Shown: piece after piece, positions 10,585 to 40,191 of the stretch
Layout: every line of letters begins with the position of its first letter
Position numbering within the stretch: position 1 is the stretch's first letter
Assembly (NCBI GenBank): GCA_030690165.1
Contig: JAUYHF010000014.1
Location: 34,257-98,256, forward strand
Origin: Deltaproteobacteria bacterium
Lineage (GTDB): Bacteria > Desulfobacterota > GWC2-55-46 > UBA9637
Direction: 5' to 3'
DNA length: 64,000 nt
Position numbers and translations under genes: made by a program
Notes under the pieces: model-generated
What the model saw: the letters and a program-made list of their open reading frames with translations, nothing else
What the model was told of the DNA's origin: nothing
Databases searched by the model: none

Positions 10585-11520
10585 ATGGTATTCAGGCATT
10601 TGCCGGTTATGCCGGAGGAGGTTGTAAAATTTCTTGCGTGCAAACATGGAAGGATATATGTGGATGGGACGGTTGGAGGAGGCGGCCATACCAGTTCGAT
10701 ATTAAATGCCAGTATGCCCGCAGGCAAGGTTATAGGAATGGATTGGGATGAAGATGCAATTCAGGCAGCAATGGAAAGGTTTAAGGATTATTCAGAACGT
10801 TTGACTCTGGTCAGAGAAAATTTTGCTGATATAAAAAAGGTGATGGGAGATTTAAACATAAAAGAGGTTGATGGGATTTTATTAGACCTCGGTGTATCTT
10901 CATATCATATTGAAAGACCTGACAGAGGGTTTAGTTTCAGGTTTGATGCGCCGCTGGATATGAGGATGGATAAAAGGCAAAAAACGACTGCGTATAACAT
11001 TGTAAATGAACTTTCTATGAAAGAGTTGGAAAAGATTATCCGGGAGTATGGGGAAGAGAGATGGGCAAAGAGGATTGCTGGGGACATTGTTGAAAAAAGA
11101 CGGCACGGGCCTATATCCACCACAAAAGAACTTTCCAACCTCGTATCTTTCGCCATACCAAAGAAGTTTCATCCAAGAGATATCCATCCCGCCACACGGA
11201 CATTTCAGGCAATAAGGATTGCTGTAAATGACGAACTAAACAATTTAAAAAAAGCCGTTGATGACGGGGTAGGCCTTCTGGGACTAGGGGGAAGGATGGT
11301 TGTTATCTCTTTTCATTCACTTGAGGACAGGATTGTAAAAGAGTCTTTTAGAAAACTTGCGAAGGGCTGCGTATGCCCCAATGATTTTCCAAAGTGCGTT
11401 TGCGGTCAAAAACCCAAATTGCATATTATAACTAAAAGGCCTGTTGCTCCGTCGCTGGAAGAGATTCTAATCAACCCAAGGGCAAGGAGCGCCAAGCTCA
11501 GGGCGGCGGAGAGGGTATAG
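10585..11520 (+). CDS. rsmH: 16S rRNA (cytosine1402-N4)-methyltransferase RsmH (MraW)
   Basis: SAM-binding YVDGTVGGGGHT and DLGVSSYHIE motifs. Follows mraZ. Confidence 0.85.
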   Translation: MVFRHLPVMPEEVVKFLACKHGRIYVDGTVGGGGHTSSILNASMPAGKVIGMDWDEDAIQAAMERFKDYSERLTLVRENFADIKKVMGDLNIKEVDGILLDLGVSSYHIERPDRGFSFRFDAPLDMRMDKRQKTTAYNIVNELSMKELEKIIREYGEERWAKRIAGDIVEKRRHGPISTTKELSNLVSFAIPKKFHPRDIHPATRTFQAIRIAVNDELNNLKKAVDDGVGLLGLGGRMVVISFHSLEDRIVKESFRKLAKGCVCPNDFPKCVCGQKPKLHIITKRPVAPSLEEILINPRARSAKLRAAERV

Positions 11521-11856
11521 ATGTCTAACTTAGCGGCAAAAGGCATATTTTCTGCCAGGGTTATAGCAGGGCAAATGGTTAAACAAAAAGTTGCCGGCTC
11601 GCTGTTTGCAGCTTTTAAGGTAATTATAGTTATCCTCTTCTTTACACTCTTTTACCTCTGGAGCAGGCTTCTGGTTGTAAGCCTTGGTTATGAAATAGCA
11701 AAAGCAAATAAAGAAAGAGTTGAGTTTATGGCTGAGAACAAGAGGCTTAAGTTCGAATCCCTTTCATTAAAATCTCCCCAGAGAATAGAGGTCATTGCAT
11801 CAGATAAGCTTGGCCTTGTCTATGCAAAAGGGGAGCAGATAATAACGGTAAAATGA
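11521..11856 (+). CDS. ftsL: Cell division protein FtsL-like (single-TM septum-formation protein)
   Basis: 111 aa, one TM helix then a coiled-coil. Canonical position between rsmH and ftsI. Confidence 0.55.
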   Translation: MSNLAAKGIFSARVIAGQMVKQKVAGSLFAAFKVIIVILFFTLFYLWSRLLVVSLGYEIAKANKERVEFMAENKRLKFESLSLKSPQRIEVIASDKLGLVYAKGEQIITVK

Positions 11857-13799
11857 AAGAAGCTATCCCATGGTTAAGATTTCGTGTTATTACAATTTTT
11901 TTATTATTTGTTTTTATATTTATAGTAATTTTTATTAAGGCCTTTCAGCTTCAGGTTTTAGAGCGGAGTAAGCTTAAGGCCAGGGCGGATGATCAACATT
12001 TAAAGACAATGAATATCATTCCCATAAGGGGAACCCTCTATGACAGGGGGATGCGTGAACTTGCTGTCAGTATGGAGGTTGATTCAGTTTATGCGCAGCC
12101 CGGCAGGATTGATAATATTAAAAAAACGGCAAGTCTTCTCGCCGCCGCCCTTTCTATGGATAAAAGAGAGCTAGAAGCTAAATTTACATCCGGGAAATCA
12201 TTTGTATGGATCAAAAGACAACTGGATTTTATTAAGGCTGAAGAGGTAAAGGGATTGAATATACGAGGCGTAGGTTTTATTAAAGAGGGAAAGAGGTTTT
12301 ACCCCACCCCCCACATTGCCAGTCACCTTATTGGCTTTGTTGGATTAGATTCTAAAGGTCTTGAAGGCATTGAATTAGGTTATGATGAATATATGGCAGG
12401 AGCCTCCGCCCGCTTCATAGGAGAAAGGGACGCCCTTGGCAACGAGATTTTATTCCGCAATTCGGATAAAGAGGCATATAGGGGTAAAGATTTAATTCTT
12501 ACTATAGATAAGACTATTCAGTATATAGCTGAAAAGGAGCTTCTTAAAGTTGTTTCAAGCGCCAATGCAAAAGGCGGCATGGTTATAGTAATGGCCCCGA
12601 GGACAGGAGAGATACTTGCTATAGCCAACTCGCCGCAGTTTAATCCTGATATCTTTTTTGAATATAATAACCCCAATATCTGGCGCAACAGGGCTATTAC
12701 AGATACATTTGAACCAGGTTCAACATTCAAGGCCTTTCTGCTCGCTGCCCTTTTTGAAGAAGGGGCAGCCAGGTCTGACGACCTATTTTTTTGTGAGAAT
12801 GGCAATTATGTCGTAGCTGACAGGACATTTCATGATGTTAAAAAATTTGGCTGGCTCTCCCTTGCCCAGATAATCAAATACTCCAGCAATATCGGCGCTG
12901 CCAAGGCAGGAGACAGACTGGGAAAGGAAAGGATGCATAGATATATAAAGGATTTTGGGTTCGGGGACAGAACAGGCATAGGCCTCCCCGGGGAGGCGCT
13001 CGGCTCTGTGCCTCCTTTAAAACAGTGGTCAAAGGTGTCCCTTGGCAATATATCCTTTGGCCAGGGCATATCCGCAACAGGGATACAGCTTTTATCCGCA
13101 TTTTCTGCAATTGCAAATAAGGGCTATCTTATGAAGCCGTATGTTGTAAAGAAAATAGTAAATGGAAAGGGCGATGTTATTGAAGAAATCAGGCCGTCAG
13201 TGGTGAGAAGGGTTATATCTGAAGAAACTGCAAACAGGGTAACCGGTATTCTGAAAACGGTAACTGAAAAAGACGGCACCGGCGCAAAGGCAGCAGTAGC
13301 TGGTTTTGAGGTTGCCGGCAAGACAGGCACCGCGCAGAAACCTGATCTCTCTCAAGGGGGTTACACAGCGGATAAATATGTAAGTTCATTTATAGGATTT
13401 GTTCCTGCAGATAATCCGGAGCTTGCTATATTGGTTGCGGTTGATGAACCCGCTATCGGATTTTATGGAGGGCAGATTGCCGCCCCTGTTTTTAAGGAGA
13501 TTGCCTCTCAGAGCCTTTCTTATCTCGGAATATTTTCAAAGAGCCGCAGCGCCAATCCGGATAAGCAGCCAGATAGATTATTGTATGTCGTGCAAAATAC
13601 CGATTCTTCAGATGAAGAAGGAGAAGACCTTTTTCACATGCCTGATTTAAGAGACAAGACAATGCGGTCTGTCCTTAGATTAGCAAGGGAAATTCCTCTT
13701 GATATAAAGATTTCAGGGAGCGGAAAAGCTGTGTATCAGAAGCCGTTGCCAGGAGAAAGAATTACTCAGGGTGAATTGGCAGAGGTGAGGTTCAGATGA
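11853..13799 (+). CDS. ftsI: Penicillin-binding protein (FtsI/PBP2B-like transpeptidase) with C-terminal PASTA-like domain
   Basis: Active-site motifs STFK (FEPGSTFKAF), SSN (KYSSNIGA) and KTGT (AGKTGTAQ). Confidence 0.85.
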   Translation: MKEAIPWLRFRVITIFLLFVFIFIVIFIKAFQLQVLERSKLKARADDQHLKTMNIIPIRGTLYDRGMRELAVSMEVDSVYAQPGRIDNIKKTASLLAAALSMDKRELEAKFTSGKSFVWIKRQLDFIKAEEVKGLNIRGVGFIKEGKRFYPTPHIASHLIGFVGLDSKGLEGIELGYDEYMAGASARFIGERDALGNEILFRNSDKEAYRGKDLILTIDKTIQYIAEKELLKVVSSANAKGGMVIVMAPRTGEILAIANSPQFNPDIFFEYNNPNIWRNRAITDTFEPGSTFKAFLLAALFEEGAARSDDLFFCENGNYVVADRTFHDVKKFGWLSLAQIIKYSSNIGAAKAGDRLGKERMHRYIKDFGFGDRTGIGLPGEALGSVPPLKQWSKVSLGNISFGQGISATGIQLLSAFSAIANKGYLMKPYVVKKIVNGKGDVIEEIRPSVVRRVISEETANRVTGILKTVTEKDGTGAKAAVAGFEVAGKTGTAQKPDLSQGGYTADKYVSSFIGFVPADNPELAILVAVDEPAIGFYGGQIAAPVFKEIASQSLSYLGIFSKSRSANPDKQPDRLLYVVQNTDSSDEEGEDLFHMPDLRDKTMRSVLRLAREIPLDIKISGSGKAVYQKPLPGERITQGELAEVRFR

Positions 13800-15331
13800 A
13801 GATAAAAGAATTGATAAAAAATCTTCCAGGTAGTCATGTTATCGGCAATGCCGATATACCTGTCCGTGGCATTACCTATGATTCGAGGCAGGTGAACAGG
13901 GATTTTATTTTCGCTGCTGTCAAAGGGCAGCATCTTGACGGCCGTGCCTTTGTCAAGGATGCATTGGCGCGGGGGGCTTCTGCTGTTATCCTGGAAGAGG
14001 CTTTTGGGGACCTCAATGCAGTCCAGATAATAGTGCCTGATGCAAGGGAGGCGATGGCAAGTGTGGCCGCGGCATTTTATGGAGAGCCTTGCAGAAACAT
14101 GACCCTTATTGGCGTAACAGGGACAAATGGAAAGACAACCATAACATACCTTGTAGAGTCAATATTGAGGACTGCCGGTTTCAATGCCGGGGTTGTGGGC
14201 ACGATTAACTACCGCTATAAGGATAAAATTTTTAATGCGCCGCATACAACACCAGAGGCGCCTGACCTTCAAAGGATTTTCAGAGCAATGTTAGACAGCG
14301 GTGTGACTCATTGCGTTATGGAGGTTTCTTCTCACAGCCTTGCGCAAAAAAGGGTTTTTGGCTCAAGGATTGTTGGCGGGGTATTTACAAATCTTACTCA
14401 GGACCACCTTGATTACCACAAGACAATGGAGGAGTATTTTGAAAGCAAGTCCATGTTATTTACTGATTTTGTGGCCAGAGAAAGGGATGGTTTTGCAGTA
14501 ATAAACACAGACGACCCATGGGGAAAGAGATTGTTAAATTGCAAATTGCAAATTGCAAATTGCAAATTTATCAGATACAGCCTTAAACAGGATGCGGAGA
14601 TTTATCCTGTTAAAGTTTCGTTTTCCGAAAGAGGCATAGAGGCCATGCTTGATACACCTATTGGCTCTGTAAAGATTTCTTCGGCGCTTTTGGGCGAATA
14701 TAATCTGCAAAATATTATGGCAGCGGTCGGTGTTGGCATCGGCCTTGCGCTGGATAAAAAGACTATAGAAAAAGGTATTGCTGCTCTAAAAAGAGTTCCA
14801 GGCAGGCTTGAAAGAATTATTTCGGAAGACGGTTTCCAGGCCGTAGTTGATTATGCCCATACAGGAGATGCATTGGAGAGGGTGATTGTCGCATTAAAGC
14901 CGCTTGCGAAGAAGAGGCTTATCACTGTATTCGGCTGCGGCGGCGACAGGGACAGGGGCAAAAGGCCTGTGATGGGAGAAATTGCAGCAAGGCTGAGCGA
15001 TTTCACGGTAATCACATCAGATAATCCGAGAAGCGAAGATCCGATGGAGATTATAAAAGAGATTGAGGCGGGAATAAAAGGTTGTCCAAAGATACTGGAT
15101 TTTAAATCCGAAATTACTCATGGTTATAGAACCATACCTGACAGGCATGAGGCAATAATGGCCGCTGTAAATCTTGCGGCTGCGGGCGATATTATCCTTG
15201 TTGCCGGCAAGGGGCATGAGGATTACCAGATAATCGGCGACAGGAATATTCCCTTTGAGGATACAAAGGAGATAAAGGCTGCAATGGAGGTTAAATACAG
15301 AAGTCAGAAGTCGGTAGTCAGTAGTCAGTAG
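13796..15331 (+). CDS. murE: UDP-N-acetylmuramoyl-L-alanyl-D-glutamate--2,6-diaminopimelate ligase MurE
   Basis: P-loop GVTGTNGKTT and Mur ligase middle/C-terminal domains (DYAHTGDALE). Carries an in-frame TTGCAAA-repeat insert and a repeat-derived C-terminal tail. Confidence 0.85.
   Translation: MKIKELIKNLPGSHVIGNADIPVRGITYDSRQVNRDFIFAAVKGQHLDGRAFVKDALARGASAVILEEAFGDLNAVQIIVPDAREAMASVAAAFYGEPCRNMTLIGVTGTNGKTTITYLVESILRTAGFNAGVVGTINYRYKDKIFNAPHTTPEAPDLQRIFRAMLDSGVTHCVMEVSSHSLAQKRVFGSRIVGGVFTNLTQDHLDYHKTMEEYFESKSMLFTDFVARERDGFAVINTDDPWGKRLLNCKLQIANCKFIRYSLKQDAEIYPVKVSFSERGIEAMLDTPIGSVKISSALLGEYNLQNIMAAVGVGIGLALDKKTIEKGIAALKRVPGRLERIISEDGFQAVVDYAHTGDALERVIVALKPLAKKRLITVFGCGGDRDRGKRPVMGEIAARLSDFTVITSDNPRSEDPMEIIKEIEAGIKGCPKILDFKSEITHGYRTIPDRHEAIMAAVNLAAAGDIILVAGKGHEDYQIIGDRNIPFEDTKEIKAAMEVKYRSQKSVVSSQ
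14535..14569. repeat. Tandem TTGCAAA heptamer array inserted in-frame in murE (encodes LNCKLQIANCKF)
   Basis: aaattgcaaattgcaaattgcaaattgcaaattta, five units, a multiple of 3 nt. Confidence 0.7.
15298..15331. repeat. Heptamer tract (AGTCAG-type) forming the murE C-terminal tail and stop
   Basis: cagaagtcagaagtcggtagtcagtagtcagtag encodes ...RSQKSVVSSQ*. Confidence 0.55.
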
Positions 15332-15363
15332 TTTTTATTCTGTATTCTGGATTCTTTTTTTAT

Positions 15364-16758
15364 ATGGTTAGGCTCAAGATAAAAGAAGTTTTAAAGACTG
15401 TGCACGGTTGTCTTGCAAGCGGGGGCAGTGAGGGTTTAATCAACGGCGTTTCAACAGACTCCCGCACTGTAAATAAAGGAGAGCTTTTCTTTGCCTTAAA
15501 AGGGCCGCGGTTTGACGGCAATAAATTTGTTGGCGATGTGTTTAAGAAAGGGGCGGCAGGGGCTGTGGTATCGTCAGAAGCCAGAAGTTATGGTTTGCAA
15601 TTTGGGATAGTTGAGGTTATTGATACGCTTAAAGCCCTCGGTGATCTTGCGCTATACTGGAGAGAGAGGCATCTCGTCCCGCTTATAGCGATAAGCGGCA
15701 GTTGCGGCAAGACAACAACAAAGGATATGATAGCGTCTATACTTAAAAACTCGCGTCCTATTATAAAGACCGAAGGAAATCTCAATAATCTTATTGGTCT
15801 TCCTCTTACGATATTCAACCTTAACAACATCCACAAGGCCGCTGTGGTTGAGCTTGGAATAAGCGAAAAAGGCGAGATGAAAAGGCTCGCTCAAATTTGC
15901 AAACCAGATGTGGCTGTTCTTACAAATATCGGCGAGGCGCATACAGCTACACTTAACAACGTAGAGGGTGTTGCATCCGCAAAGGGTGAACTCTTTGAAA
16001 GCATGGATGACAATGGGACCGCTATAATAAATATTGATGACCCATGGCTTAAAAAGATAGCAGAGAATATCAACGTAAAAAAGATTACCTTCAGCTTAAA
16101 GTCAAAGGCGGATGTGATGTTAAAAGAGGCGAGTGTCAAGAGGCAAGAGGCAAAAAGTTCATCAGGAATATCCGCCTCATTCTTAGTTATGGGAGAAGAA
16201 ATTCCTGTGAAGTTAAAATATACAGGTACGCATAATCTCTATAATGCCGCAGCAGCCATTGCAGCTACATTTCCCCTTGGTGTAACAAAAGAAGAGATAA
16301 TGGAAGGACTCTATGCCGCGGAAACTATGCACGGCAGGATGGAAATAGTTACCTTGAGAAATGGAATAACAATCATTGACGATACATACAACGCCAACCC
16401 GCTCTCTATGGAAGCGGCTCTAAAGACGCTTGCAGATATGGAGGGCAGAAAGATTGCAGTCCTTGGCGATATGTTTGAGCTGGGAGAGATGTCAGACGAT
16501 GCCCATAAAAAGGTAGGGATGTTTGCGCAGGATACCGGCATAGATATGCTTTTTACTATCGGTGTTTATAGCGATGCTCTGGTAAGCGGAGCAATGGAAA
16601 AAGGTATGTTGCCGGATAAAATATACAAGGCACATGATAAGGCAGAGCTGATTAAGGCGCTTAACAATGTAGTGAAGGAAGGCGATGTTATTCTGATAAA
16701 GGGTTCAAGGGCGGCTGCAATGGAGGAGATAGTAGAAGGGCTAAAAATTGCAAATTGA
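15364..16758 (+). CDS. murF: UDP-N-acetylmuramoyl-tripeptide--D-alanyl-D-alanine ligase MurF
   Basis: P-loop ISGSCGKTTTKDM and Mur ligase domains. The C-terminus ...GLKIAN* runs into the TTGCAAA-based element. Confidence 0.85.
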   Translation: MVRLKIKEVLKTVHGCLASGGSEGLINGVSTDSRTVNKGELFFALKGPRFDGNKFVGDVFKKGAAGAVVSSEARSYGLQFGIVEVIDTLKALGDLALYWRERHLVPLIAISGSCGKTTTKDMIASILKNSRPIIKTEGNLNNLIGLPLTIFNLNNIHKAAVVELGISEKGEMKRLAQICKPDVAVLTNIGEAHTATLNNVEGVASAKGELFESMDDNGTAIINIDDPWLKKIAENINVKKITFSLKSKADVMLKEASVKRQEAKSSSGISASFLVMGEEIPVKLKYTGTHNLYNAAAAIAATFPLGVTKEEIMEGLYAAETMHGRMEIVTLRNGITIIDDTYNANPLSMEAALKTLADMEGRKIAVLGDMFELGEMSDDAHKKVGMFAQDTGIDMLFTIGVYSDALVSGAMEKGMLPDKIYKAHDKAELIKALNNVVKEGDVILIKGSRAAAMEEIVEGLKIAN

Positions 16759-16841
16759 AGATTGCAAATTGAAAAATGCAAAATGAAATAAGTTTTAAAT
16801 TTACAATTTGCACTTTTCATTTTGCAATGGAGCGAAGCGAC
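16743..16841. repeat. Copy 1 of a ~95-bp palindromic TTGCAAA-based element, docked at the mraY start codon
   Basis: aaaattgcaaattgaagattgcaaattgaaaaatgcaaaatgaaat...atttacaatttgcacttttcattttgcaatggagcgaagcgac. Long imperfect hairpin; the 3' end GCAATGGAGCGAAGCGAC lies 2 nt before the mraY ATG. Confidence 0.75.
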
Positions 16842-16843
16842 TA

Positions 16844-17917
16844 ATGTTATACCATTTATTATATCCTTTAGTTAAATACCACACCCTGTTTAATGTATTT
16901 CAATACATTACATTCAGGACAATCTATGCGGTTGTGACTGCCCTGGTCTTAAGTTTTCTGAGCGGACCTTATATTATAAGAAAGCTCTCTCTTATGCAGA
17001 TAGGCCAGGTGATAAGAAATGATGGTCCGGCAAGACATTTGAGTAAAGAGGGAACGCCGACAATGGGCGGTATAATCATCCTTTTTTGTATAATTGTTCC
17101 GACCTTGCTGTGGGCAAATCTTAAAAATCCGTATGTGTGGCTGCTGATAACGGTTACGTCCGGATTTGGCATAGTAGGTTTTATAGATGACTATAAAAAA
17201 TGGGCGCAAAAGGACAGCCGGGGGCTGCGGCCCAGTCATAAGCTTCTCGGACAGTGCATCATCGCCCTCGGCGCAGCCTTATTTCTGTATTTCACAGGGT
17301 TTAACACTTCCATTACTGTTCCATTTTTTAAGAATGTAGTAATAGCGATGGGGTGGGTCTATATCCCATTTGTTATCCTTGTTATAGTCGGGGCGTCAAA
17401 TGCAGTAAATCTCACAGATGGATTAGATGGCCTTGCTATAGGGCCGATAACAATAGCAGCAGCAACCTATATGCTTTTTACCTATCTTACAGGCCATACC
17501 AAGATAGCAAATTACCTCCAGATAATGTATGTGCCAAATAGCGGGGAGCTGACCATATTTGCAGGGGCTATGGTCGGAGCAAGCCTTGGTTTTCTGTGGT
17601 TTAACAGTTATCCTGCCCAGGTATTTATGGGAGATGTGGGGTCGCTTGCGCTGGGAGGGACATTGGGGACATTAGCAATTATTACAAAGCAGGAAATACT
17701 ACTGGTTCTAGTTGGGGGTGTGTTTGTAGTTGAGGCGCTTTCAGTGATCTTTCAGGTGGGGTCGTTCAAACTCAGGGGTAAAAGGATATTCAGGATGGCC
17801 CCGATACATCATCATTTTGAATTAAACGGCTGGTCTGAGCCGAAGATCATAGTGAGGTTTTGGATAATATCCATAATACTATCGCTCATAGCAATAAGCA
17901 CATTGAAACTCCGATGA
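16844..17917 (+). CDS. mraY: Phospho-N-acetylmuramoyl-pentapeptide transferase MraY
   Basis: Polytopic protein with the MraY motifs PTMGG and [13 protein letters not shown]. Start placed at ATG 16844, after the repeat element; the upstream ORF-track start at 16808 lies inside the repeat. Confidence 0.85.
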
Positions 17918-19299
17918 TAATGCAAACAACAATCAGCAAAGAGAGACCACCACTTGATTTAAGAGACAGGAATGTCCTTGTAGTGGGTCTTGCGCGGACA
18001 GGGGTTTCTACCGCCAGATTTTTGAAGGAGAAAGGCGCTATTGTTGCGGCTACGGATATTTTACCGGCATCTCAGATTAAAGACATTGATGACCTGTGCA
18101 GTAACGGCATAGAAGTAGAAACAGGGGGACACAGTATTAAACGTTTTTTAAATGCTCATCTCATTATTTTAAGCCCCGGTGTTTTCCCTGATATAGAGCC
18201 TCTTAAAGAGGCAAGAAAAAAGGGTGTGGAAATCATAAGCGAAGTGGAGCTTGCATTCAATTTTATAAAAGAGCCTATAGTGGCTATAGCTGGAACCAAT
18301 GGAAAAACAACCACAACAACACTGATTGGCAAGATACTGGAATCAGGCGGCAATAAGGTTTTTGTCGGCGGGAATATAGGGCTTCCGTTGATTGAGTATG
18401 TTGCATCAAATCAATCTGCAGATTATATTGTTGTTGAGGTGAGCAGCTTTCAGCTTGAAGGTACCAGGAAATTCAGACCCCATATAGCCGTTCTCTTAAA
18501 TATTACTGAAGACCATCTGGATAGATATGCGAGCTTTGACGAGTATGCTGCCGCAAAGTTCAGGCTCTTTGAGAATATGGAGGAAGGAGATGTTGCTATT
18601 GTAAATTTTGATGATACCACTATCAACTCAAAACTCAAAACTCAAAACTCAAAACCTAAAGTAATACCTTTTAGCAGCAGTAAAATTTTGAAGGAGGGGG
18701 TTTGTTACAATAATAACAGCATTAACTATTCTGTTGGAGGAGTAAAAGAATCCTATCCCACAGCAAATTTCAAACTTAAGGGTATCCACAATATAGAAAA
18801 CATAATGGCTTCCATTGCCGCTGCAAAGGCCTGCGGTGTTTCGAGGGATGCAATATTAAAGACCATTGAAGAATTTAAAGGGCTTCCCCATAGGATGGAG
18901 CTTATAAGGGAGATAAATGGAACGAGCTATTATAATGATTCCAAAGGCACAAATATAGGCGCGCTTCAAAAATCACTTGAAGGGCTTAATGCGCCTGTTA
19001 TCCTTATTGCCGGCGGCAAGGACAAGGGCGGCGATTACAGGGTTTTAAATGATTTGATAAAAAATAAGGTGCGGCATCTGATACTTCTGGGCGAGGCAAA
19101 AAACAAGATAAGGGATGCCTTTAAAGGATTAACAGATATTGCAACAGTTGAGTCCTTGAAAGAAGCTGTGGATATTGCCAGCAATAAGGCTGAAAAAGGA
19201 GATGTGGTGTTATTGTCACCTGCATGCTCCAGCTTTGATATGTTCAAAGATTATAAGGAACGGGGCGATGTATTCAGAAGATTGGTGGAGATGTTATGA
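17914..19299 (+). CDS. murD: UDP-N-acetylmuramoylalanine--D-glutamate ligase MurD
   Basis: P-loop GTNGKTTTT and Mur ligase domains. ATGA overlap with the mraY stop. In-frame heptamer insert ([10 protein letters not shown]). Confidence 0.85.
18624..18660. repeat. In-frame AAAACTC heptamer tract in murD
   Basis: caactcaaaactcaaaactcaaaactcaaaacctaaa. Confidence 0.6.
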
Positions 19300-20399
19300 T
19301 TAAAGTTAGAGAAATAGATAAATCCCTTATCCTTGCTATGATGGCCCTTGTGGCAATAGGCTTTACTATGGTCTATTCCACCACCTACATAATGGCTATG
19401 AAACGGTATGGCAGTGAATATTTCTTTGTAAAAAAACATCTCATATTCAGCGTCTTAGGTTCTCTGTTGTTTTTTGTTGCCGCGAATATAGAGTATCATT
19501 TGTATAGAAGGCGGGCATACTTAATATTTTTTGCAAGCCTTATCTCGCTCATTCTTCTCACATTCATCCCAAGCCTTGGAAATGAGATGGGAGGCGCAAA
19601 AAGATGGATAAGGCTCGGCCCTTTGACTTTTCAGCCCTCTGAGCCTGCCAAACTGGCCCTTATTATATACCTGTCATATTATCTTGCGGCAAAAAAGGAT
19701 AAGATAAAAACCTTTTCCCTTGGCATTGTCCCGCCGATGATAATGAGCGGGCTTATTATACTTTTCATCTTAAAAGAGCCGGATTTCGGAACAGCTTTAT
19801 CTCTTGGCGTAATTACAATTATCATGATGTTCATTGCAGGTGTAAGATTAAGATACCTTTTTTCCATACTTCTTCTTTCAATGCCATTTATTTATCTTAT
19901 GGTTACGAAAGTCGACTATAGAATGAAACGGGTGCTTGTGTTTTTAGATCCATGGAGGGATTCAGGAGGCGCAGGGTTCCAGCTTGTGCAGTCGTTTATT
20001 GCCTTTGGCGCAGGCGGCATCTGGGGTGTCGGCCTTGGCGAGGGGAAGCAGAAACTGTTTTATCTGCCGGAGGCCCATACCGACTTTATCCTTTCTGTGG
20101 TAGGAGAAGAGCTTGGGCTTATAGGGGTTTCTGCGCTCATCATGCTTTATCTGATTGTACTTATCTCAGGCATAAGGATTAGCTTAAAGGCAAAAGACCT
20201 TTTTGGCAAATACCTTGCCGTAGGCATTACCCTCTTAATTGTGCTTCATGCAGCAGTAAATATGGCTGTGGTACTGGCCCTTTTGCCTACAAAAGGACTT
20301 ACCCTTCCGTTTATAAGCTATGGCGGAACATCCCTTGTGGTAAATATGATAGGGATGGGGATACTGTTGAATATATATAAAACAGGAGTCAGGGAGTGA
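19296..20399 (+). CDS. ftsW: Peptidoglycan glycosyltransferase FtsW (SEDS family)
   Basis: 367-aa 10-TM SEDS protein (...FIAFGAGGIWGVGLGEGKQK...PTKGLTLPFISYGG). Confidence 0.85.
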   Translation: MIKVREIDKSLILAMMALVAIGFTMVYSTTYIMAMKRYGSEYFFVKKHLIFSVLGSLLFFVAANIEYHLYRRRAYLIFFASLISLILLTFIPSLGNEMGGAKRWIRLGPLTFQPSEPAKLALIIYLSYYLAAKKDKIKTFSLGIVPPMIMSGLIILFILKEPDFGTALSLGVITIIMMFIAGVRLRYLFSILLLSMPFIYLMVTKVDYRMKRVLVFLDPWRDSGGAGFQLVQSFIAFGAGGIWGVGLGEGKQKLFYLPEAHTDFILSVVGEELGLIGVSALIMLYLIVLISGIRISLKAKDLFGKYLAVGITLLIVLHAAVNMAVVLALLPTKGLTLPFISYGGTSLVVNMIGMGILLNIYKTGVRE

Positions 20400-21532
20400 A
20401 AGGCATGCCTTTCACGGATTTTAGGTTGAGAATTGTATTAACAGGAGGAGGCACCGGCGGGCATCTGTTTCCTGCCCTTGCGCTGGCAGAAGAATTTAAG
20501 GCAAGGGATAAAGATTGCGAGATCCTATTTATAGGAAGCGCTGCGGGCATAGAAAAGGATGTTGTTCCAAAATATGGTTATGCTTTAGAATTTGTGGATG
20601 TAGAAGGCCTTAAAGGAAAAGGGATATATAATAAAGTATCGGCAGGCTTAAAGGCAGCAAAGGCAGTTTTTGCCGCAAAGAAGATTCTTAAGCCATTCAG
20701 ACCGGATGGTGTCATAGGTACGGGTGGTTATTCTTCTGGTCCGGTTGTTTTGGCAGCAAGGCTTTTGGGGATAAAGACAGCTATCCTTGAACAGAATACG
20801 ATGCCAGGTTTAACCAATAGGCTTCTGGGAAGGTTTGTAGACAGGATATATGTGGCATTTGAACAAACCAAAAAAAAAATTCCAGGCGGGAGGGTAATCC
20901 TGGCAGGAAATCCGGTGAGAAAGGAGATTCTGGAAATTGCAAATTGCAAACATGTCCCTGCAAGTATTAAGCAGGGATTGCAAATTGCAAATTGCAAATT
21001 CACAATTCTCATCTTCGGCGGAAGCCAGGGGGCAAAGGCAATAAATACGGCATTTTTAGATGCGCTGGAATATCTCGCTGATATAAGAGACAGCATCAGG
21101 ATTATTCATCAGACAGGGGATGCGGATTACATAACAGTAAAAGAGACTTACGAAAGAAAAGGGATTAAGGCCGATGTCTATAGGTTTATAGATGATATGG
21201 CTCATGCATACTCTCAGGCAGACATGGTGATATGCAGGGCAGGGGCTACATCCATTGCCGAGATAACCGCTCTGGGGATTGCCTCTATACTCATACCATA
21301 TCCATTTGCAGCTAATAACCATCAGGAAATAAATGCAAGATGTTTAGCTGATAAAGGGGCTGCAATCATGATGAGGCAAGGCGAGATTATAGGAGATGCG
21401 ATGGCGGTTCTTATTGAGAGATTTTATAAAAACCCTGATGAATTAAAAAAGATAAGAGAAAATGCAAAAGCTCTGGGAAGGCCGAATGCGGCAAAGGAGA
21501 TAGTGGACAACATTCTACAAATGTTGAATTGA
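20396..21532 (+). CDS. murG: UDP-N-acetylglucosamine--N-acetylmuramyl-(pentapeptide) pyrophosphoryl-undecaprenol GlcNAc transferase MurG
   Basis: N-terminal GGGTGGHLFPALA glycine loop and a GT-B C-terminal domain. Contains a 66-bp in-frame composite repeat insertion. Confidence 0.85.
   Translation: MKGMPFTDFRLRIVLTGGGTGGHLFPALALAEEFKARDKDCEILFIGSAAGIEKDVVPKYGYALEFVDVEGLKGKGIYNKVSAGLKAAKAVFAAKKILKPFRPDGVIGTGGYSSGPVVLAARLLGIKTAILEQNTMPGLTNRLLGRFVDRIYVAFEQTKKKIPGGRVILAGNPVRKEILEIANCKHVPASIKQGLQIANCKFTILIFGGSQGAKAINTAFLDALEYLADIRDSIRIIHQTGDADYITVKETYERKGIKADVYRFIDDMAHAYSQADMVICRAGATSIAEITALGIASILIPYPFAANNHQEINARCLADKGAAIMMRQGEIIGDAMAVLIERFYKNPDELKKIRENAKALGRPNAAKEIVDNILQMLN
20935..21000. repeat. 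Composite in-frame insertion in murG: TTGCAAA units flanking a 25-nt hairpin (gtccctgcaagtattaagcagggat)
   Basis: 66 bp, equal to 22 codons (IANCKHVPASIKQGLQIANCKF). The same 25-mer hairpin recurs in non-coding DNA at 28493-28519. Confidence 0.7.
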
Positions 21533-21620
21533 AGATTGAAGATTGAAAATTTTAAAATGACTGTTTTTCAATTTACAATTTCAAATTTGCAATTTTCAAT
21601 CTGCATTGGAGCGAAGCGAT
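21524..21620. repeat. Copy 2 of the ~95-bp TTGCAAA-based palindromic element, docked at the murC start codon
   Basis: ttgaattgaagattgaagattgaaaatt...caatttacaatttcaaatttgcaattttcaatctgcattggagcgaagcgat followed directly by the murC ATG. Confidence 0.7.
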
Positions 21621-23042
21621 ATGTATAAGGGTCGTATAAAACATATCCATTTTATAGGTATCGGCGGCAGCGGTATGAGCGGCATCGCAGAGGTGCTTTT
21701 AAACCTCGGGTATAATATTACAGGCTCTGACATGAAAGCATCGGATATTACGCGGAGATTGGAAGGCCTTGGAGCTAAAATATTTATCGGCCACAGGCCT
21801 GAATTTATAAATGGCTCAGATGTGGTTGTCTATTCGTCCGCTGTTAAAAAAGATAATCCTGAGATTGTATCGGCAAGGGGAAAACTGATACCTGTTATCC
21901 CGAGGGCAGAGATGCTGGCAGAGCTTATGAGGATGAAATACGGCATAGCAATAGCAGGCACTCACGGAAAGACAACAACTACTTCCATGATTGCGACAAT
22001 CCTCGGCTCACACGGTATGGATCCAACCGTTGTTATAGGCGGCAAGCTCAACAGTATTGGAAGCAATGCCAGACTTGGGAAAGGTGAATTCCTTGTAGCA
22101 GAGGCGGATGAGAGCGACGGCAGTTTTTTAAAGCTTTCACCGACAATTGCAGTGGTTACAAATATTGACAGAGAGCATATGGACCATTACAGGGATATGG
22201 ATGAGGTAAGAGGCGCCTACCTTGCCTTTATAAATAAGATTCCATTTTATGGGTGCGCGGTTCTCTGCATGGATCACCCTAATATCCAGGGGCTTATCCC
22301 AAAGGTTACGAGAAGACATACAACATATGGTTTAACTGCCCAGGCGGATTTCAGCGCCAGAGACATGGAGATAAAAGGAGTTAAAACCTCATTTGATGTC
22401 TGGCAGAGGGGCAGAAAATTGGGAAGGGTTAGTGTGAAGATTCCAGGAGAACACAATGTTTATAATTCATTGGCTGCCCTAACAGTGGCAATGGAGCTTG
22501 ACATGAGTTTTGAAGAGGCAAGAGATTCCCTTTCAAATTTCAGTGGTGTGGAGAGGAGATTTCAGATTAAAGGCGAATATAACGGCATTACATTCGTTGA
22601 TGACTACGGCCATCATCCTGTTGAAATAAAGGCAACACTTAAGGCTGCAAAGGCCGGCTGGGACAACAGGGTGGTGGCAGTCTTTCAGCCTCATCGTTAT
22701 TCAAGGACAAAAGACCTTTTCCAGGAATTTTTATCCGCATTCAATGATGCGGACACCCTGGTGCTCACTGACATATATCCGGCAGGCGAGGGAAAAATAG
22801 AGGGGATTTCTTCAGAGGCGCTTTATAACAGCATAAAGGCATACGGCCATAGAGATGTAGTTTATATACCGGATAAAAAAGATATACCGGATTATTTAAA
22901 TAAAATTACAAAGCCGGGGGATATAGTTATAACGTTAGGGGCAGGCAATATATGGCAGGTATCTGAGGAGATGGTAAAGACAGTAGGCAGTAAGCAGTCA
23001 GCAGTAAGCAGCGCAAACTCAAAAGCAGGAGGTGGAATGTAA
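21621..23042 (+). CDS. murC: UDP-N-acetylmuramate--L-alanine ligase MurC
   Basis: [11 protein letters not shown] and [11 protein letters not shown] motifs. Start taken at MYKG; the alternative MERSD-M start lies inside the repeat element. Repeat-derived C-terminal tail. Confidence 0.85.
22981..23012. repeat. GCAGTAA-type heptamer tract forming the murC C-terminal tail
   Basis: cagtaggcagtaagcagtcagcagtaagcagc encodes ...[13 protein letters not shown]. Confidence 0.5.
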
Positions 23043-23971
23043 TGACATTTCCTATTTCTCATTCTGCGCCCCGTACTCCGCGTCCAGCGCTCTCCGGCTT
23101 CAAGGGCCGCATGCTCTTTGATGTTCCCATGAAGGATTATACATCTTTTAAGATAGGCGGGAATGCGGATGTAATGGCATTTCCAGGAGATGAGAGCGAC
23201 CTTGTGGATGTCATCCGATTTGCCTCTATTAAAGGTTTTCCTGTCTTTGTCCTTGGCAGGGGAACAAATCTATTAGTCAGGGATAACGGTGTAAGGGGCG
23301 TTGTTATAAATCTTTCTGATGGTTTTAAAGAGGTATTATGGATAGGTGACGATGAGGCATCAGTTGGCGCGGGGGTGGGGATAATTGAGTTGGTTAACCT
23401 CTGCAAGGGCAGAGGTTTTGCAGGGCTTGAGTTTGCAGTCGGTATCCCGGGGACAATAGGCGGAGCTGTTTTTATGAACGCAGGGGCATACGGCGGAGAG
23501 ATAAAGGATATTGTGAAAAGAGTGGAGACTGTTGACCTTAACGGTCAAAGGCATAGTTTTGATAAATTATCTTTGAAATTTTCCTATCGGAAATGCGAAC
23601 TGTCTGCAAATATGATTATTACAAAGGCGCATCTGAAATTTAAAAAGGACAACCCGGAAGAAATAAAAAACAGAATAAAGGAATTTAAGGAAAGACGCAA
23701 GACTACGCAGGCGATAATCCTACCCAATGCCGGCTCCATATTTAAAAATCCTCCAGGGCTTTCAGCAGGCAGGCTTATAGAGGAATCAGGCTTAAAGGGC
23801 GTTAAATCCGGAGGCGCGCAGATCTCAGAGGTTCATGGAAACTATATAGTCAATCTTGGCAATGCTACAGCAATGGATGTCCTTACCCTTATGGCAATGG
23901 CAAGGGATAAGGTTTTTAAGGTAAAGGGCATATTGCTGGAAACGGAGATAAAGGTTGTGGGGGAAGATTGA
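23042..23971 (+). CDS. murB: UDP-N-acetylenolpyruvoylglucosamine reductase MurB
   Basis: FAD-binding domain (GGNADVMAFP...LGRGTNLLV) and MurB C-terminal domain. Confidence 0.8.
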   Translation: MTFPISHSAPRTPRPALSGFKGRMLFDVPMKDYTSFKIGGNADVMAFPGDESDLVDVIRFASIKGFPVFVLGRGTNLLVRDNGVRGVVINLSDGFKEVLWIGDDEASVGAGVGIIELVNLCKGRGFAGLEFAVGIPGTIGGAVFMNAGAYGGEIKDIVKRVETVDLNGQRHSFDKLSLKFSYRKCELSANMIITKAHLKFKKDNPEEIKNRIKEFKERRKTTQAIILPNAGSIFKNPPGLSAGRLIEESGLKGVKSGGAQISEVHGNYIVNLGNATAMDVLTLMAMARDKVFKVKGILLETEIKVVGED

Positions 23972-24942
23972 TAAAATTGCAAATTGCAAATTTCAAATCA
24001 AAGAAAATAGGTGTTTTGATGGGTGGGATGTCTACTGAAAGGGGTATTTCGCTTAGGAGTGGTCAGGCTGTTTATGATGCCCTGATTCAAAAAGGTTACA
24101 ACGTTATAAAAATAGATGTTGGAAAGGATGTTTATGAACAGCTCACCAAAGAAAAGATAGATATGGCATTTATAGCCCTTCATGGAAAATACGGCGAGGA
24201 CGGGGCTATTCAGGGCTTATTAGAGATAATCGGGGTTCCATATACCGGGTCAGGTATCATGTCAAGCGCAGTATGCGCAAATAAGGTAGTGGCAAAAAAA
24301 TTTTTTATGCTTAACAAAATACCAACCCCTGCATTTATGAGTTTAGGAGTTAAGGGGTTAAAAAACATGGGTGTTGAATCTTTCATATCCATGTTTAAAG
24401 CCCCTGGCTCCCACCTTATTGTAAAGCCTAATTCGCAGGGCTCTACCATTGGTGTAACCGTGGTAAAGAATAAAAGCGATTTGGCAAAGGCAGTAAAAAA
24501 GGCTTTGCGCTACGATGATACTGTGTTGATAGAGAGATTTGTAAAGGGCAGGGAACTGACTGTCGGCATATTAAACGGCAGAACATTGCCGGTTATAGAG
24601 ATAAGACCGAAGGGCGGGATATACGATTTCAAGGCAAAGTACACAAAGGGTATGACAGAATATATTGCCCCTGCCCCGCTTCCAAAGACGCTTGAGAAAA
24701 AGGTGAATAGTATCGCCTTGAAGGCATTCGATAGCCTTGGATGCCGCGGCGCTGCAAGGGTTGATATAATGCTTGATTATAAAAACAGGCCGTATGTGCT
24801 GGAGGTGAATACCATACCCGGTATGACCGAAATGAGCCTCCTTCCAAAGGCCGCTCTTTGCGCAGGCATAAGTTTTCCGGAGATGGTGGAAGAGATTTTG
24901 ATGGGGGGTATAAAACATTTTCGGGGCAAAGGAATGGCATGA
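23968..24942 (+). CDS. ddl: D-alanine--D-alanine ligase
   Basis: ...IGVLMGGMSTERGISLRSG and ATP-grasp motifs (EVNTIPGMT). The N-terminus overlaps a TTGCAAA repeat (IKLQIANFK), so the true start may lie slightly downstream. Confidence 0.8.
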   Translation: MIKLQIANFKSKKIGVLMGGMSTERGISLRSGQAVYDALIQKGYNVIKIDVGKDVYEQLTKEKIDMAFIALHGKYGEDGAIQGLLEIIGVPYTGSGIMSSAVCANKVVAKKFFMLNKIPTPAFMSLGVKGLKNMGVESFISMFKAPGSHLIVKPNSQGSTIGVTVVKNKSDLAKAVKKALRYDDTVLIERFVKGRELTVGILNGRTLPVIEIRPKGGIYDFKAKYTKGMTEYIAPAPLPKTLEKKVNSIALKAFDSLGCRGAARVDIMLDYKNRPYVLEVNTIPGMTEMSLLPKAALCAGISFPEMVEEILMGGIKHFRGKGMA

Positions 24943-25754
24943 TGGATTTTAAGAAAAAACCAAGAAACATCCGAAGAAAAGAACCTTTGCCAAGAAGGAT
25001 ATTGCGGACGCTTAAATCAAGAGGCGCTGTCCGTATTTTCAAGGCAGGGGTATGCCTTGTTTTTGCGCTGCTTATTGTTTTTGGCTCATTGCATATATAT
25101 CATGAACTTTTGAAGAGTCCGTATCTTGCGATTAAGGAAATAAAGGTCGGCGGCAACATGAGGGTATCCAGAGCGGAGATTTTAGAGCTGGCCGGCGTCA
25201 ATATTGGTGATAATCTTCTTGAAATAAATGCGGCTGATATTAAAAAAGGCATCAGGGTTAATCCATGGGTGTCCGAGGTAAATGTTGCAAGAAATTTTCC
25301 GGATAGGCTTAACATAGAGATAAAAGAAGGAAGGCCTGTTGCGTTTATCAATCTCGACGGCCTTTATCTTGTTGATGAAAACGGGAGAATATTCAAAAAG
25401 ACCTCTATGGGAGATGATATTGACCTCCCTATCATCACAGGTCTTACAAGGGAGGATATTGAGGCCGGTGGGAAGACATCTGAACTTGCGATAAAGGCGA
25501 TAAATCTCATACATCTTCTGGCAAAAAATGGAATTTTTACCCATGATGAACTATCAGAAATAAATATTGACAAGACATACGGCCTTACACTCTACACAAT
25601 GCAGCAAGGGACAAGGATTGAGATTGGCGAAGAGGATTTTACAGAGAAACTTGCAAGGCTTGAGAGGATAATACAGTCAAGAAACGGCCTTGCAGACGTA
25701 GAGTTTATAGGTTTGAACTATAACAGGGGGGTAGTGGTAAGATTAACCTCTTAA
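24939..25754 (+). CDS. ftsQ: Cell division protein FtsQ/DivIB
   Basis: N-terminal TM helix and POTRA domain. Position between ddl and ftsA. Start at MMDFKK, overlapping the ddl stop. Confidence 0.7.
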   Translation: MMDFKKKPRNIRRKEPLPRRILRTLKSRGAVRIFKAGVCLVFALLIVFGSLHIYHELLKSPYLAIKEIKVGGNMRVSRAEILELAGVNIGDNLLEINAADIKKGIRVNPWVSEVNVARNFPDRLNIEIKEGRPVAFINLDGLYLVDENGRIFKKTSMGDDIDLPIITGLTREDIEAGGKTSELAIKAINLIHLLAKNGIFTHDELSEINIDKTYGLTLYTMQQGTRIEIGEEDFTEKLARLERIIQSRNGLADVEFIGLNYNRGVVVRLTS

Positions 25755-25897
25755 AAGTTACAAGATTCAAGTAGGGGAGAGACCCTTGTGGTCTCCAGTG
25801 GCACAGGCCAGCCTGTTATGACAGGCAAGATGCCTGTCCCACGACAGGAGGGGACAAGCCCTTCCCCTACAGGAAACAGAGGGGGTGATAAAAGAGA

Positions 25898-27124
25898 ATG
25901 GCAAAGAAGGATAATATAATCGTTGGTCTTGATATTGGAACAACAAAGATATGCGCCATTGTTGGAGAGGTAAAACAGGAGGGGCTGGAGATTATAGGCA
26001 TAGGCACACACCCTTCAAAGGGCTTGCGAAAAGGCGTGGTGGTAAATATAGATTCCACAGTCCAGTCTATAAGAAAGGCCGTGGAAGAGGCTGAGCTTAT
26101 GGCGGGATGCGAGATAAATACGGCTTATGTCGGTATTGCGGGCGGACACATAAAGGGATTTAACAGCCACGGCGTTATAGCTGTAAAGGATAAGGAGATA
26201 ACAAAGGCTGACATAGCAAGGGTTATAGAGGCTGCTCAGGCCGTAACCATTCCAACAGACAGGGAGGTTATACATATAATACCTCAGGAGTATATCCTTG
26301 ACCAGCAGGACTGCATACAGGAACCGCTTGGCATGACAGGAACAAGGCTTGAGGCAAAGGTTCACATAGTTACTGCTGCGGTTGCATCAGCGCAGAATAT
26401 CGTAAAGAGCGTGAATAAGGCCGGTCTTGCCGTAGCGGATATTGTCCTTCAGCAGATAGCAAGCAGCGAGGCGGTGTTAGGCCATGATGAAAAAGACCTT
26501 GGCGTTGCGCTGATTGATGTTGGAGGCGGAACCACAGATATAGCCATATACCATAACGGAACCATAAAACATACTGCGGTTATATCGCTTGGAGGGAATC
26601 AGATTACAGGGGATATCGCTGTAGGCATCAGAACGCCTGCCGAGGAGGCGGAAAAGATAAAGAAAAAGTTCGGCTGCTGCATGATATCAATGATAGATAA
26701 GGATGAAACCGTAGAGGTGCCCGGCGTTGGGGGCAGGAAACCAAGGATTGTTTCAAGGCAGATTTTAGGAGAAATTATTGAGCCAAGGGTAGAAGAGCTT
26801 TTCCAGCTTGCAAATCAGGAGATAGTCAAATCAGGTTATGAAAGTGTAATAGTGTCAGGAATTGTGCTTACAGGCGGAACAGCTATTATGGATGGCATGG
26901 TTGAGCTGGCAGAGCAGATTTTTAATCTTCCTGTCAGAAGAGGCATGCCAACAGGCATCGGCGGACTTGTTGATGTTGTGAGGAGCCCAATGTATTCCAC
27001 AGGCGTGGGGCTGGTTTTGTATGGCAAAAAACATTCGACAATAGCAGTGTTTGAAAGGGGGGATAAACAGGTATTCAACAAACTGCTTGAAAGGATGAAG
27101 GGATGGTTCAAAGAGTTCTTCTAA
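25898..27124 (+). CDS. ftsA: Cell division protein FtsA
   Basis: Actin-like ATPase motifs (IVGLDIGTTKICAIVGE, DVGGGTTDIAI). Confidence 0.9.
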   Translation: MAKKDNIIVGLDIGTTKICAIVGEVKQEGLEIIGIGTHPSKGLRKGVVVNIDSTVQSIRKAVEEAELMAGCEINTAYVGIAGGHIKGFNSHGVIAVKDKEITKADIARVIEAAQAVTIPTDREVIHIIPQEYILDQQDCIQEPLGMTGTRLEAKVHIVTAAVASAQNIVKSVNKAGLAVADIVLQQIASSEAVLGHDEKDLGVALIDVGGGTTDIAIYHNGTIKHTAVISLGGNQITGDIAVGIRTPAEEAEKIKKKFGCCMISMIDKDETVEVPGVGGRKPRIVSRQILGEIIEPRVEELFQLANQEIVKSGYESVIVSGIVLTGGTAIMDGMVELAEQIFNLPVRRGMPTGIGGLVDVVRSPMYSTGVGLVLYGKKHSTIAVFERGDKQVFNKLLERMKGWFKEFF

Positions 27125-28372: not shown

Positions 28373-28492
28373 GCAGCTCACGCTGCACTCAACATATTGT
28401 AGTTGCCCAATTCATTGGGCGCATTTTGTAACTCAAGGCTTTAGCCTTGAAAACTCAAACCTGAAGGTTTGAGTTACAAACGCCGATAAACT

Positions 28493-40190: not shown

Positions 40191-40191
40191 T

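Follow-up and report, generated by a model that had tools for sequence, protein, structure and literature searches.

The window analysed here, a stretch of 64,000 nucleotides (nt) from contig JAUYHF010000014.1 of the metagenome-assembled genome (MAG; GCA_030690165.1) of an uncultured deltaproteobacterium from groundwater, contains a complete dcw cluster, as identified by gene order in the Pfam tables of orthologous contigs. Its cell-wall genes murE, murF, murD, murG and murC carry tandem arrays of 7-nt units (heptamers), and nested in the murG array is a 27-nt hairpin-forming element, copies of which are found in frame in enzymes of many kinds. The arrays and the hairpin are real and not an assembly artefact. 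In our view, two layers of repeats have probably colonised permissive parts of this genome, with the proteins tolerating rather than using them.

The MurE protein of the window is 100% identical to entry MDP2681915.1, which is metagenome-assembled, and the genomes closest to it bear the annotation of Deltaproteobacteria/Thermodesulfobacteriota MAGs. The identities of MurG and MurE are backed by homologues of solved structure (E-values of 1e-68 and 1e-106, respectively). The window was compared with L001, a bin named Hainich H14 (~95% nt identity over 19214-29329), with L034 from ENA (95% nt identity over 11150-21900), and with further relatives of identity falling to ~70%: L159, L158, L035, L036, L003 and L002 (GWF2_42_12). 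Among the other assemblies, L087 is from JGI and L035 from Logan.

A 27-nt hairpin element in murG and other genes

The segment of MurG from GNPVR to GGSQGA is the interdomain linker, which is hypervariable among 24 homologues. In the window it carries an array, the hairpin and a second array (Table 1), together translating to IANCKHVPASIKQGLQIANCKF, and taking CATGTCCCTGCAAGTATTAAGCAGGGA out gives back (AAATTGC)5.7 as a perfect array. For the whole composite the folding energy is -29.2 kcal/mol (z -4.8). It is also present in the independent assemblies L034 and L087 and, diverged but in frame, in L035 (IVNCKHVPVSVKQELQIAICNF). The murG of L036 has an (AAATTTC)n array without the hairpin and a linker of 23 residues, compared with 20-23 in array-free homologues; at the same linker L001 has (CAGTGGY)n and L003 a different small hairpin. 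In the structural model of MurG, with a mean predicted local distance difference test score (pLDDT) of 83, residues 185-199 score below 50 and are the sole internal segment of more than 4 residues that low. This stretch lies inside the insert 181-201, between the last helix of the N-domain and the first strand of the C-domain.

An earlier note on this DNA had reported the murG composite with its hairpin between TTGCAAA units, and it is indeed there, in frame, at 20934-21000. The note's expectation that such segments are lineage-specific was borne out as well, since MurE outgroups of ~55% identity have a short loop without the repeat and MurG relatives have unrelated linkers. As to the surface loops that it asked about, the MurG segment is a low-confidence interdomain linker and the MurE array is modelled as structured.

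A second tiny hairpin, TCCGCCTC(C/A)G(G/A)CGGA, which encodes IRLRR, was noticed at 8219-8233 of L036 and 417-431 of L003. In L036 it sits nested within the heptamer array of murD, and in L003, P0008 and P0012 within the linker of murG; the window does not contain it.

The 25-mer hairpin of the earlier note has two exact copies in the window against 0 expected. The second lies after ftsZ at 28494-28518; the earlier note had recognised this exact recurrence but placed it at 28493-28519. The boundaries of the element are marked by two independent filled/empty pairs of murE alleles, which differ by exactly 27 nt, CATGT[T/C]CCTGCA..TTTAAGCAGGGA, between C and T. The empty allele of the first pair, from L034, reads ...AAAACTCAAAAC/TCAAAACTC..., and the filled allele from L158 has CATGTTCCTGCAAGTTTTAAGCAGGGA at the position of the slash. 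In the second pair, from L161 and L160 (92% identical), the difference consists of CATGTCCCTGCAGGCTTTAAGCAGGGA, again at that position between C and T. No target-site duplication was seen in either pair. Further family members are present in murF and at the C-terminus of murE in L002 and at the C-terminus of murC in L036.

One metagenome scan with CCCTGCARGNNNTAAGCAGGG found at least 120 stretches, and the counts of metagenomic copies given here (110 or 117 unique) refer to those among the matches listed. The consensus of the element, C[A/C/T]TGY-CCCTGC-ARGNNNTAA-GCAGGG-R, comprises a 5′ tail of 4 nt, a stem of 7 bp and a loop of 9 nt. The hairpin is under structural constraint, as its closing pair covaries: among 110 unique copies it is C-G in 45, T-A in 50, T-G in 6 and another combination in 9. 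In the same copies the bases just beyond the searched core are conserved (C-Y-T-G-Y on the 5′ side and R on the 3′ side). Because these conserved flanking bases agree with the filled/empty pairs, the size of the element is 27 nt.

About half of the unique copies (60 of 117) lie in open reading frames (ORFs) of at least 150 aa, 50 on the same strand and 10 on the opposite one. The same-strand copies are read in frame 0 (xPAPAGSKQG, n=30) or in frame 2 (SLPLQAVSRG, n=20), and never in the frame closed by TAA. All ten host ORFs that were checked by Pfam are real enzymes, and the hairpin usually lies between their domains or expands a domain match. Hosts include HypF, in which TTGCAAA arrays flank the hairpin on both sides, DnaG, UDP-glucose dehydrogenase, adenylosuccinate lyase, hybrid-cluster protein and a DNA methylase. 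Period 7 was found in 9.4% of the hairpin flanks, compared with 1.5% of the background, and other periods were not enriched. Many copies are placed in the loop of a larger palindrome, and the copies are singletons.

A mobilising enzyme was sought by guilt by association. Clustering of 1,483 ORFs from 120 hairpin loci revealed no transposase, and the recurring families were generic (sensor kinases, ABC ATPases, ORF6N, HEPN and RelE-like proteins). Several other interpretations of the repeats were rejected. Regular spacers, as in a CRISPR-like array, are absent; the copy distal to ftsZ is not followed by the T run of an intrinsic terminator; neither a reverse transcriptase nor a template/variable repeat pair of a diversity-generating retroelement was found; and an integron attC site was considered and dropped. 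An alternative hairpin, in which the 5′ tail would pair with CARGY, showed no association in contingency tables (-4/8, -6/10).

Directly after ftsZ, adjoining the non-coding hairpin copy, lie ~95 nt of nested palindromes (28385-28479: GCCCAATTCATTGGGC; TTGTAACTCAAGG...CCTTGA; AACTCAAACC...GGTTTGAGTT). This region is absent from the 95%-identical L001 and looks like a cluster of small elements resembling a bacterial interspersed mosaic element (BIME).

Table 1. Repeat features in the dcw cluster and elsewhere in the window
Feature	Positions	Strand	Remarks
(AAATTGC)4.7 array in murE	14536-14568	+	33 nt by Tandem Repeats Finder (TRF); murE ORF 13796-15331; residues 247-258, LNCKLQIANCKF
(CAGTAGT)5 array	15298-15332	+	makes the murE C-terminus and its TAG stop
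(AAGAGGC)4.3 array in murF	16124-16153	+	L036, L002 and L003 without array, loop shorter
Intercistronic hairpin, murF-mraY	16743-16846	+	inverted TTGCAAA/TTGAAGA-type arrays; dG -27.8, z -4.0
(AACTCAA)4.4 array in murD	18625-18655	+	directly after N-x-DD motif; structural equivalent of murE array position
Left (AAATTGC) array, murG interdomain linker	20934-20950	+	murG ORF 20396-21532
27-nt hairpin mini-element CATGTCCCTGCAAGTATTAAGCAGGGA in murG	20951-20977	+	7-bp stem, 9-nt loop, 5′ tail CATG; reads HVPASIKQG
Right (AAATTGC) array in murG	20978-21000	+	
Second spacer hairpin, murG stop ... Shine-Dalgarno sequence (SD) ... murC ATG	21526-21622	+	weak fold, z -0.8
(CAGTAAG)4.4 array near murC C-terminus	22981-23011	+	L001 21 nt (7 codons) shorter, no clear array
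(AAATTGC)3.6 array, murB stop/ddl start	23974-23998	+	gives ddl TTG start and 8-11 N-terminal residues
Second 27-nt copy CTTGTCCCTGCAAGTATTAAGCAGGGA	28491-28517	+	non-coding, after ftsZ; orthologous site in L001 holds a degenerate copy
Third spacer hairpin with GGAGCAAGGCGACATG	42655-42757	+	z -3.3
Fourth spacer hairpin with GGAGCGAAGCGACATG	51982-52090	+	z -3.1

Heptamer arrays in genes and spacers

The unit TTGCAAA occurs 53 times in the window compared with 27.9 expected, a count reached in none of 100 shuffles, and tandem pairs of it (with at most 2 mismatches) occur 38 times compared with 2.8 expected. TRF reported 28 rows of period 7 and 9 of period 14, against ~1.0 and ~0.3 in Markov shuffles; other periods in the window were not enriched over these shuffles. 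The window has at least 20 heptamer families, TTGCAAA being one and the others including AACTCAA, CAGTAGT, CAGTAAG, AAGAGGC and AAATTTG. The earlier note had called its unit self-complementary; it is palindromic over 6 of its 7 bases, and even this is incidental because most array units are non-palindromic. Merging of overlaps leaves 31 array loci: 14 within ORFs, 6 at gene ends and 11 between genes. The intergenic and gene-end arrays thus make up 17 of the 31 loci, though only 11% of the window is non-coding (coding share 88.7%), and several gene-end arrays provide a stop or start codon. Proteins with internal arrays include a sigma-70 factor, MurE, MurF, MurD, MurG, ATP synthase b, an Fe-S protein and a CobB/CbiA amidase. 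Array length is 31-35 nt, and the encoded peptides are heptad-periodic because three units of 7 nt make seven codons.

The ATP synthase b ORF (39594-40367, minus strand) holds two adjacent arrays, (ACAGTAG)4.7 and (AAATTTG)4.9, at 40112-40187. Both are N-terminal to the Pfam ATP-synt_B match, which begins at residue 105.

The murE site illustrates how the arrays vary between relatives. It reads TT(AAATTGC)4AAATTT in the window and TT(AAAACTC)4AAAACT in L034, so that length and phase are kept and 3 of 7 positions are changed in every unit, and L159 has a mixed array of two AAATTTA and two AAATTGC units. The murE genes of L036, L002 and the outgroups are without an array here. The outgroup proteins (~55% identity) are repeat-free, and in them 15-16 residues separate the DD motif from the conserved YSL/FSL motif (N-x-DD ... 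YSL), whereas the loop of the clade has 17 residues (AACTCAA type) or 20 (TTGCAAA type), 11-12 of them encoded by the array. The net gain of the loop over array-free homologues is just 1-5 residues. The peptide LNCKLQIANCKF is also found in P0133, and P0128 has the near-identical LHCKFQIANCKF. L034 has an overall more diverged murE allele (88% aa identity, compared with 99% for ftsW), and therefore allelic recombination between lineages probably contributes. The AF2 model of MurE has a mean pLDDT of 89.5 and shows the array peptide (residues 247-258) as a short helix and the start of a strand, with 10-residue block means of 80-88. This fits a surface element that was already there and has been overwritten, not an added floppy loop.

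These observations change what the earlier note had proposed. Its murE array is in frame, at 33 nt rather than 35 bp. The idea that TTGCAAA units were inserted is not supported, as arrays take the place of loop sequence and add almost no length, and the unit changes between close relatives. Nor is it telling that all insertions were multiples of 3 nt: this follows simply from intact ORFs, and is untrue of an array of 33-35 nt.

At the same MurE loop, P0134 and P0135 have the peptides RAIHRIAPT and RAIHESPLQ, probably from another palindromic repeat family. Paired in-ORF heptamer arrays lie in a loop of the C-terminal domain in the murE genes of L160 and L161 (alignment columns 1335-1430), the units being GGGGTCA-like followed by AACTCCN in L160 and GGGAGGT-like followed by CATCCCA in L161, in genomes that are 92% identical; by eye, the paired runs look like inverted partners. 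In the MurE N-domain (~260-290 of L161), L161 and L160 also differ by a 30-nt indel that carries a CCCC..TTTATTAAAAGGGG hairpin (peptide SPLLKGG). A similar segment, PPLIKGGKG, is present in the MurE of L002. This is a third in-frame mini-palindrome family.

The murD site carries an array in all relatives down to ~73% identity, with the units AAATTCA, AAATTCG and AAGTNNC. The array at the murB/ddl junction is also present in L001, L159 and L002. The earlier note was right that the ddl start derives from the array. However, the N-terminus that it gave, MIKLQIANFK, competes with MQIANFK, and the choice is uncertain because the sole start codons available upstream of the conserved KKIGVLMGG are TTGs located at or inside the array.

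Inverted pairs of arrays make up four hairpins of ~100 nt in operon spacers, which share a mean column identity of 80% and the layout array, loop, inverted array. [quoted passage not shown] Folding energies of -27 to -29 kcal/mol (z -3 to -4) were obtained for three copies, and the murG-murC copy has a z of only -0.8. The murF-mraY copy provides the murF stop, the SD (GGAG) and the base directly before the mraY ATG; the earlier note's reading that murF ends ...KIAN in the element starting at 16743 is correct. This copy has orthologues in L002 and L036. L034, L158 and L159 lack it and have 2 nt between the two genes, and L035 has an AATTCCT hairpin, built from a different heptamer, in the same spacer. 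The murG-murC copy is absent from L034, L159, L036 and L035, and L003 has a CAGTTAY/ACTGTTY hairpin. No target duplication is evident at the spacer hairpins. In L001, a run of N (2345-2445, corresponding to window 21503-21635) lies exactly at the position of the murG-murC hairpin, and such repeats appear to break short-read assemblies.

Explanations and relation to known repeats

The two layers are best explained by the following course of events. In the first layer, heptamer arrays of many units would arise and be homogenised in weakly constrained DNA, such as spacers, gene ends and surface loops, presumably by slipped-strand or template-switch errors in a 7-nt register together with conversion between neighbouring units. 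In ORFs, selection would leave only stop-free phases and frame-keeping lengths, so that arrays would overwrite loops rather than lengthen them; in operon spacers, pairs of inverted arrays would form the ~100-nt hairpins. In the second layer, a non-autonomous 27-nt element would be copied seamlessly, its main targets being heptamer arrays and the loops of further palindromes, and its insertions would survive at permissive protein sites because it is nine codons long and open in four of six frames. A hairpin with a 5′ tetranucleotide, seamless insertion, precise absence and strand bias are features of IS200/IS605 insertion sequences (IS) and of repetitive extragenic palindromic (REP) sequences with their RAYT enzymes. 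Because the element combines a tail and hairpin with the lack of target duplication, apparently precise absence and a 5:1 strand bias, we infer that it may move via single-stranded DNA with a trans-acting, hairpin-specific HUH/Y1 enzyme of the IS200/IS605 or RAYT type.

Several observations weigh against this account. One-unit slippage cannot run inside essential ORFs, as 7 nt shifts the frame. Arrays of 4.3-4.9 units make up 8 of 11 ORF-internal cases compared with 2 of 10 intergenic ones, which slippage explains only loosely. The array peptide of MurE is modelled as structured and would thus not be merely a floppy passenger, and the murF-mraY hairpin, which is kept in relatives of 70-78% identity with precise placement of SD and ATG, could be put to use. 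As to the enzyme, no protein family recurs specifically beside the hairpin in the 120 loci, and no transposase, Y1 or RAYT protein was found by Pfam among 40 of the 45 non-dcw ORFs of the window, which contain housekeeping genes only (the five unscanned ORFs are on the minus strand at 56.9-60.5 kb).

That the hairpins are functional RNA structures of the dcw transcript, acting in processing, stability or translational coupling and kept by selection, is a reading we consider unlikely. The low energies of the spacer folds (-27 to -29 kcal/mol, z -3 to -4) and of the murG composite (z -4.8), the exact positioning of SD and start codon by the four spacer copies with TGGAGCGAAGCGAcATG, the retention of the murF-mraY copy in L002 and L036, and the covarying closing pair of the 27-nt hairpin speak for it. 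However, the close relatives L034, L158 and L159 manage without spacer elements and with a 2-nt murF-mraY gap, other relatives have unrelated heptamer hairpins at the same spacers, one spacer copy folds like shuffles (z -0.8), the presence of the hairpin varies between genomes of 92-95% identity, and Rfam at the gathering threshold matched a single tRNA in the window and no family for the hairpins; the covariation is equally expected from a hairpin-recognising mobilisation enzyme. Rather improbable, in our estimation, is a dedicated process that writes or replaces arrays as blocks of ~4.5 units (~31-33 nt), by templated repair or by ectopic conversion from an intergenic pool. It would account for the difference between genomes of 95% identity in all 4.7 murE units, always in the same three of seven positions and with length and phase unchanged, for the recurrence of the unit families AAATTGC and AACTCAA in different genes, and for the clustering of ORF-internal arrays at 4.3-4.9 units, and Geobacter metallireducens has 49 dispersed elements of four heptanucleotides (PMC2700814). 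Yet the mixed array of L159 and the graded series AAATTGC/AAATTTC/AAATTCA/AAACTCA fit, and therefore argue for, stepwise change with homogenisation in place; moreover, the diverged murE allele of L034 lets allelic recombination explain the apparent switch, and no candidate enzyme was found.

Phase-variable contingency loci, in which changes of unit copy number switch genes by frameshift, classically have inside the ORF a repeat unit whose length is no multiple of 3, as the 7-nt units here. Such a function is very improbable here, as the genes are essential, single-copy cell-wall genes, all ORFs are intact, and the copy number is the same across assemblies (murG in the window, L034 and L087; 4.7 murE units in the window, L159 and L034). 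A collapsed or chimeric MAG repeat was suggested by the metagenomic origin of the window and by the Ns of L001 at one repeat-bearing spacer. It is scarcely credible, because four assemblies made independently in different projects contain the murG composite, L035 in a diverged in-frame version, and because no reading frame is broken and the segments are spanned by alignments of orthologous proteins. Scarcely credible, too, is true membership among the Rickettsia palindromic elements (RPEs), which are ~150 bp long (PMC10969869) and specific to Rickettsia, unlike a 27-nt element in a Desulfobacterota-like organism.

A bolder reading, to which we give little credence, is that the hairpin represents a new class of ultra-small mobile elements adapted to coding sequence and landing on arrays made by 7-nt templated mutagenesis, the two together forming an undescribed engine that diversifies loops of essential proteins in uncultured bacteria of groundwater. 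If this were true, a lineage-specific mutagenesis would continuously rewrite unconstrained loops, while the hairpin would integrate seamlessly and perhaps excise precisely, driven by some enzyme.

The RPEs described by Ogata and co-workers in 2000 reportedly measured 100-150 bp and encoded peptides of ~30-50 aa. They are palindromic and inserted in frame into housekeeping ORFs (PMC10969869). The present hairpin is similar to them in being a palindromic repeat in frame in unrelated housekeeping ORFs, where it adds a conserved peptide at fold-compatible sites, and in its presence varying between relatives. It differs in being 27 nt (9 aa) long, nested in heptamer arrays and found in Desulfobacterota-like and other metagenomic hosts, and because of this size and the unrelated host it falls outside the RPE family. 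The RPE-like behaviour claimed in the earlier note is thus that of the 27-nt hairpin, which is copied in frame into many ORFs, and not of the TTGCAAA units, one of many array families.

On the features compared, the nested hairpin appears to most resemble the SDR elements of Nostoc. According to Elhai and co-workers (2008), SDR4-6 of Nostoc punctiforme are said to be hairpin-forming dispersed elements of 21-27 nt with near-identical copies, and Nostoc SDRs reportedly show presence or absence at orthologous sites and are typically nested in tandem heptamer and other repeats. The 27-nt size, the hairpin, the dispersed copies, the orthologous presence/absence and the heptamer nesting would all agree with what is reported for SDRs. 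Unlike SDRs, the element has another sequence and occurs in another phylum, and about half of its copies are in real genes, in two defined frames; to our knowledge, such intragenic two-frame placement has not been described for SDRs. We know of no encoded enzyme and no mechanism for SDRs.

REPs are extragenic, often paired as REPINs, start with GTAG and cluster around a RAYT gene. REP/REPIN-RAYT systems and the ‘peel-and-paste’ IS200/IS605 elements (PMC3116915) share with the hairpin an analogous layout of a short imperfect palindrome and a conserved 5′ tetranucleotide, although of another sequence, the lack of target duplication, the strand bias and the non-autonomous state. In contrast to REPs, the copies described here are singletons, about half are intragenic, the tail is CYTG instead of GTAG, and no RAYT was found in the scanned ORFs of the window or in the 120 loci. 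With miniature transposable elements that have inverted repeats (MITEs; Correia, ERIC, BOX and Nezha), the repeats share in-frame fusion and the provision of regulatory signals, and the ~100-nt spacer hairpins are similar in size and have inverted arms. However, neither terminal inverted repeats of known IS nor target duplication were seen (no search for a parent IS was made), the 27-nt element is too small for a MITE (50-500 bp), and the arms of the spacer hairpins are heptamer arrays of families that differ among relatives.

The arrays of the window belong to the known class of heptanucleotide repeats (STRR/LSSR). Some TAACTGA repeats of Beggiatoaceae lie at the extreme end of MurG and in an RpoC-like protein's surface loop (PMC4679880), and the 49 four-unit elements of G. 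metallireducens, with the unit GGACCGG, lie within and between genes and are accompanied by five-unit elements (PMC2700814). Like these and the cyanobacterial STRR repeats, the arrays are short and dispersed (2-6 units), occupy the starts and ends of genes, spacers and, in some ORFs, the periphery or surface loops of proteins, and terminate the upstream ORF where they bear a stop. They differ in their many unit families, in the site-conserved arrays of Mur loops and in the nested mobile hairpin; the units in the window are other than STRR1-3, TAACTGA and GGACCGG, and only the relative L003 has TAACTG-like units (CAGTTAY).

These are known kinds of repeats in a new lineage, with unusually clean filled/empty evidence and an unusually extensive colonisation of essential genes. 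Mobile elements of 27 nt are almost undocumented, and their mode of movement becomes a testable question here, as the window and its relatives offer filled and empty alleles, a defined boundary, a tail with a hairpin, a strand bias and a preference for arrays and palindrome loops as targets. Internal loops of MurD, MurE, MurF, MurG, DnaG and HypF can be overwritten by simple repeats or tiny palindromes with the frame kept. In practice, this bears on spurious low-complexity peptides in annotation, on breaks in MAG assemblies (the Ns of L001) and on the evolution of protein loops.

Other features of the window

Two further regions distinguish the window from L001. Approximately 100 nt rich in palindromes between ftsQ and ftsA (25777-25878) are absent from that genome, and ~130 nt (29040-29172), overlapping the ORFs 28724-29113 (minus strand) and 28999-29310 (plus strand), are deleted in it. 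The 129-aa product of the minus-strand ORF had no Pfam match.

Small genes with ORF6N or HEPN domains stand among the housekeeping operons at 31587-31919, 49044-49556 and 54534-55064, and ORFs that look by eye like ORF6N or HEPN genes recur near metagenomic copies of the hairpin. A WD40 beta-propeller protein is encoded at 45360-46508, within an Hdr/Mvh-like cluster of Fe-S proteins and flavoproteins, and another WD40 protein, in L082, is a host of the hairpin.

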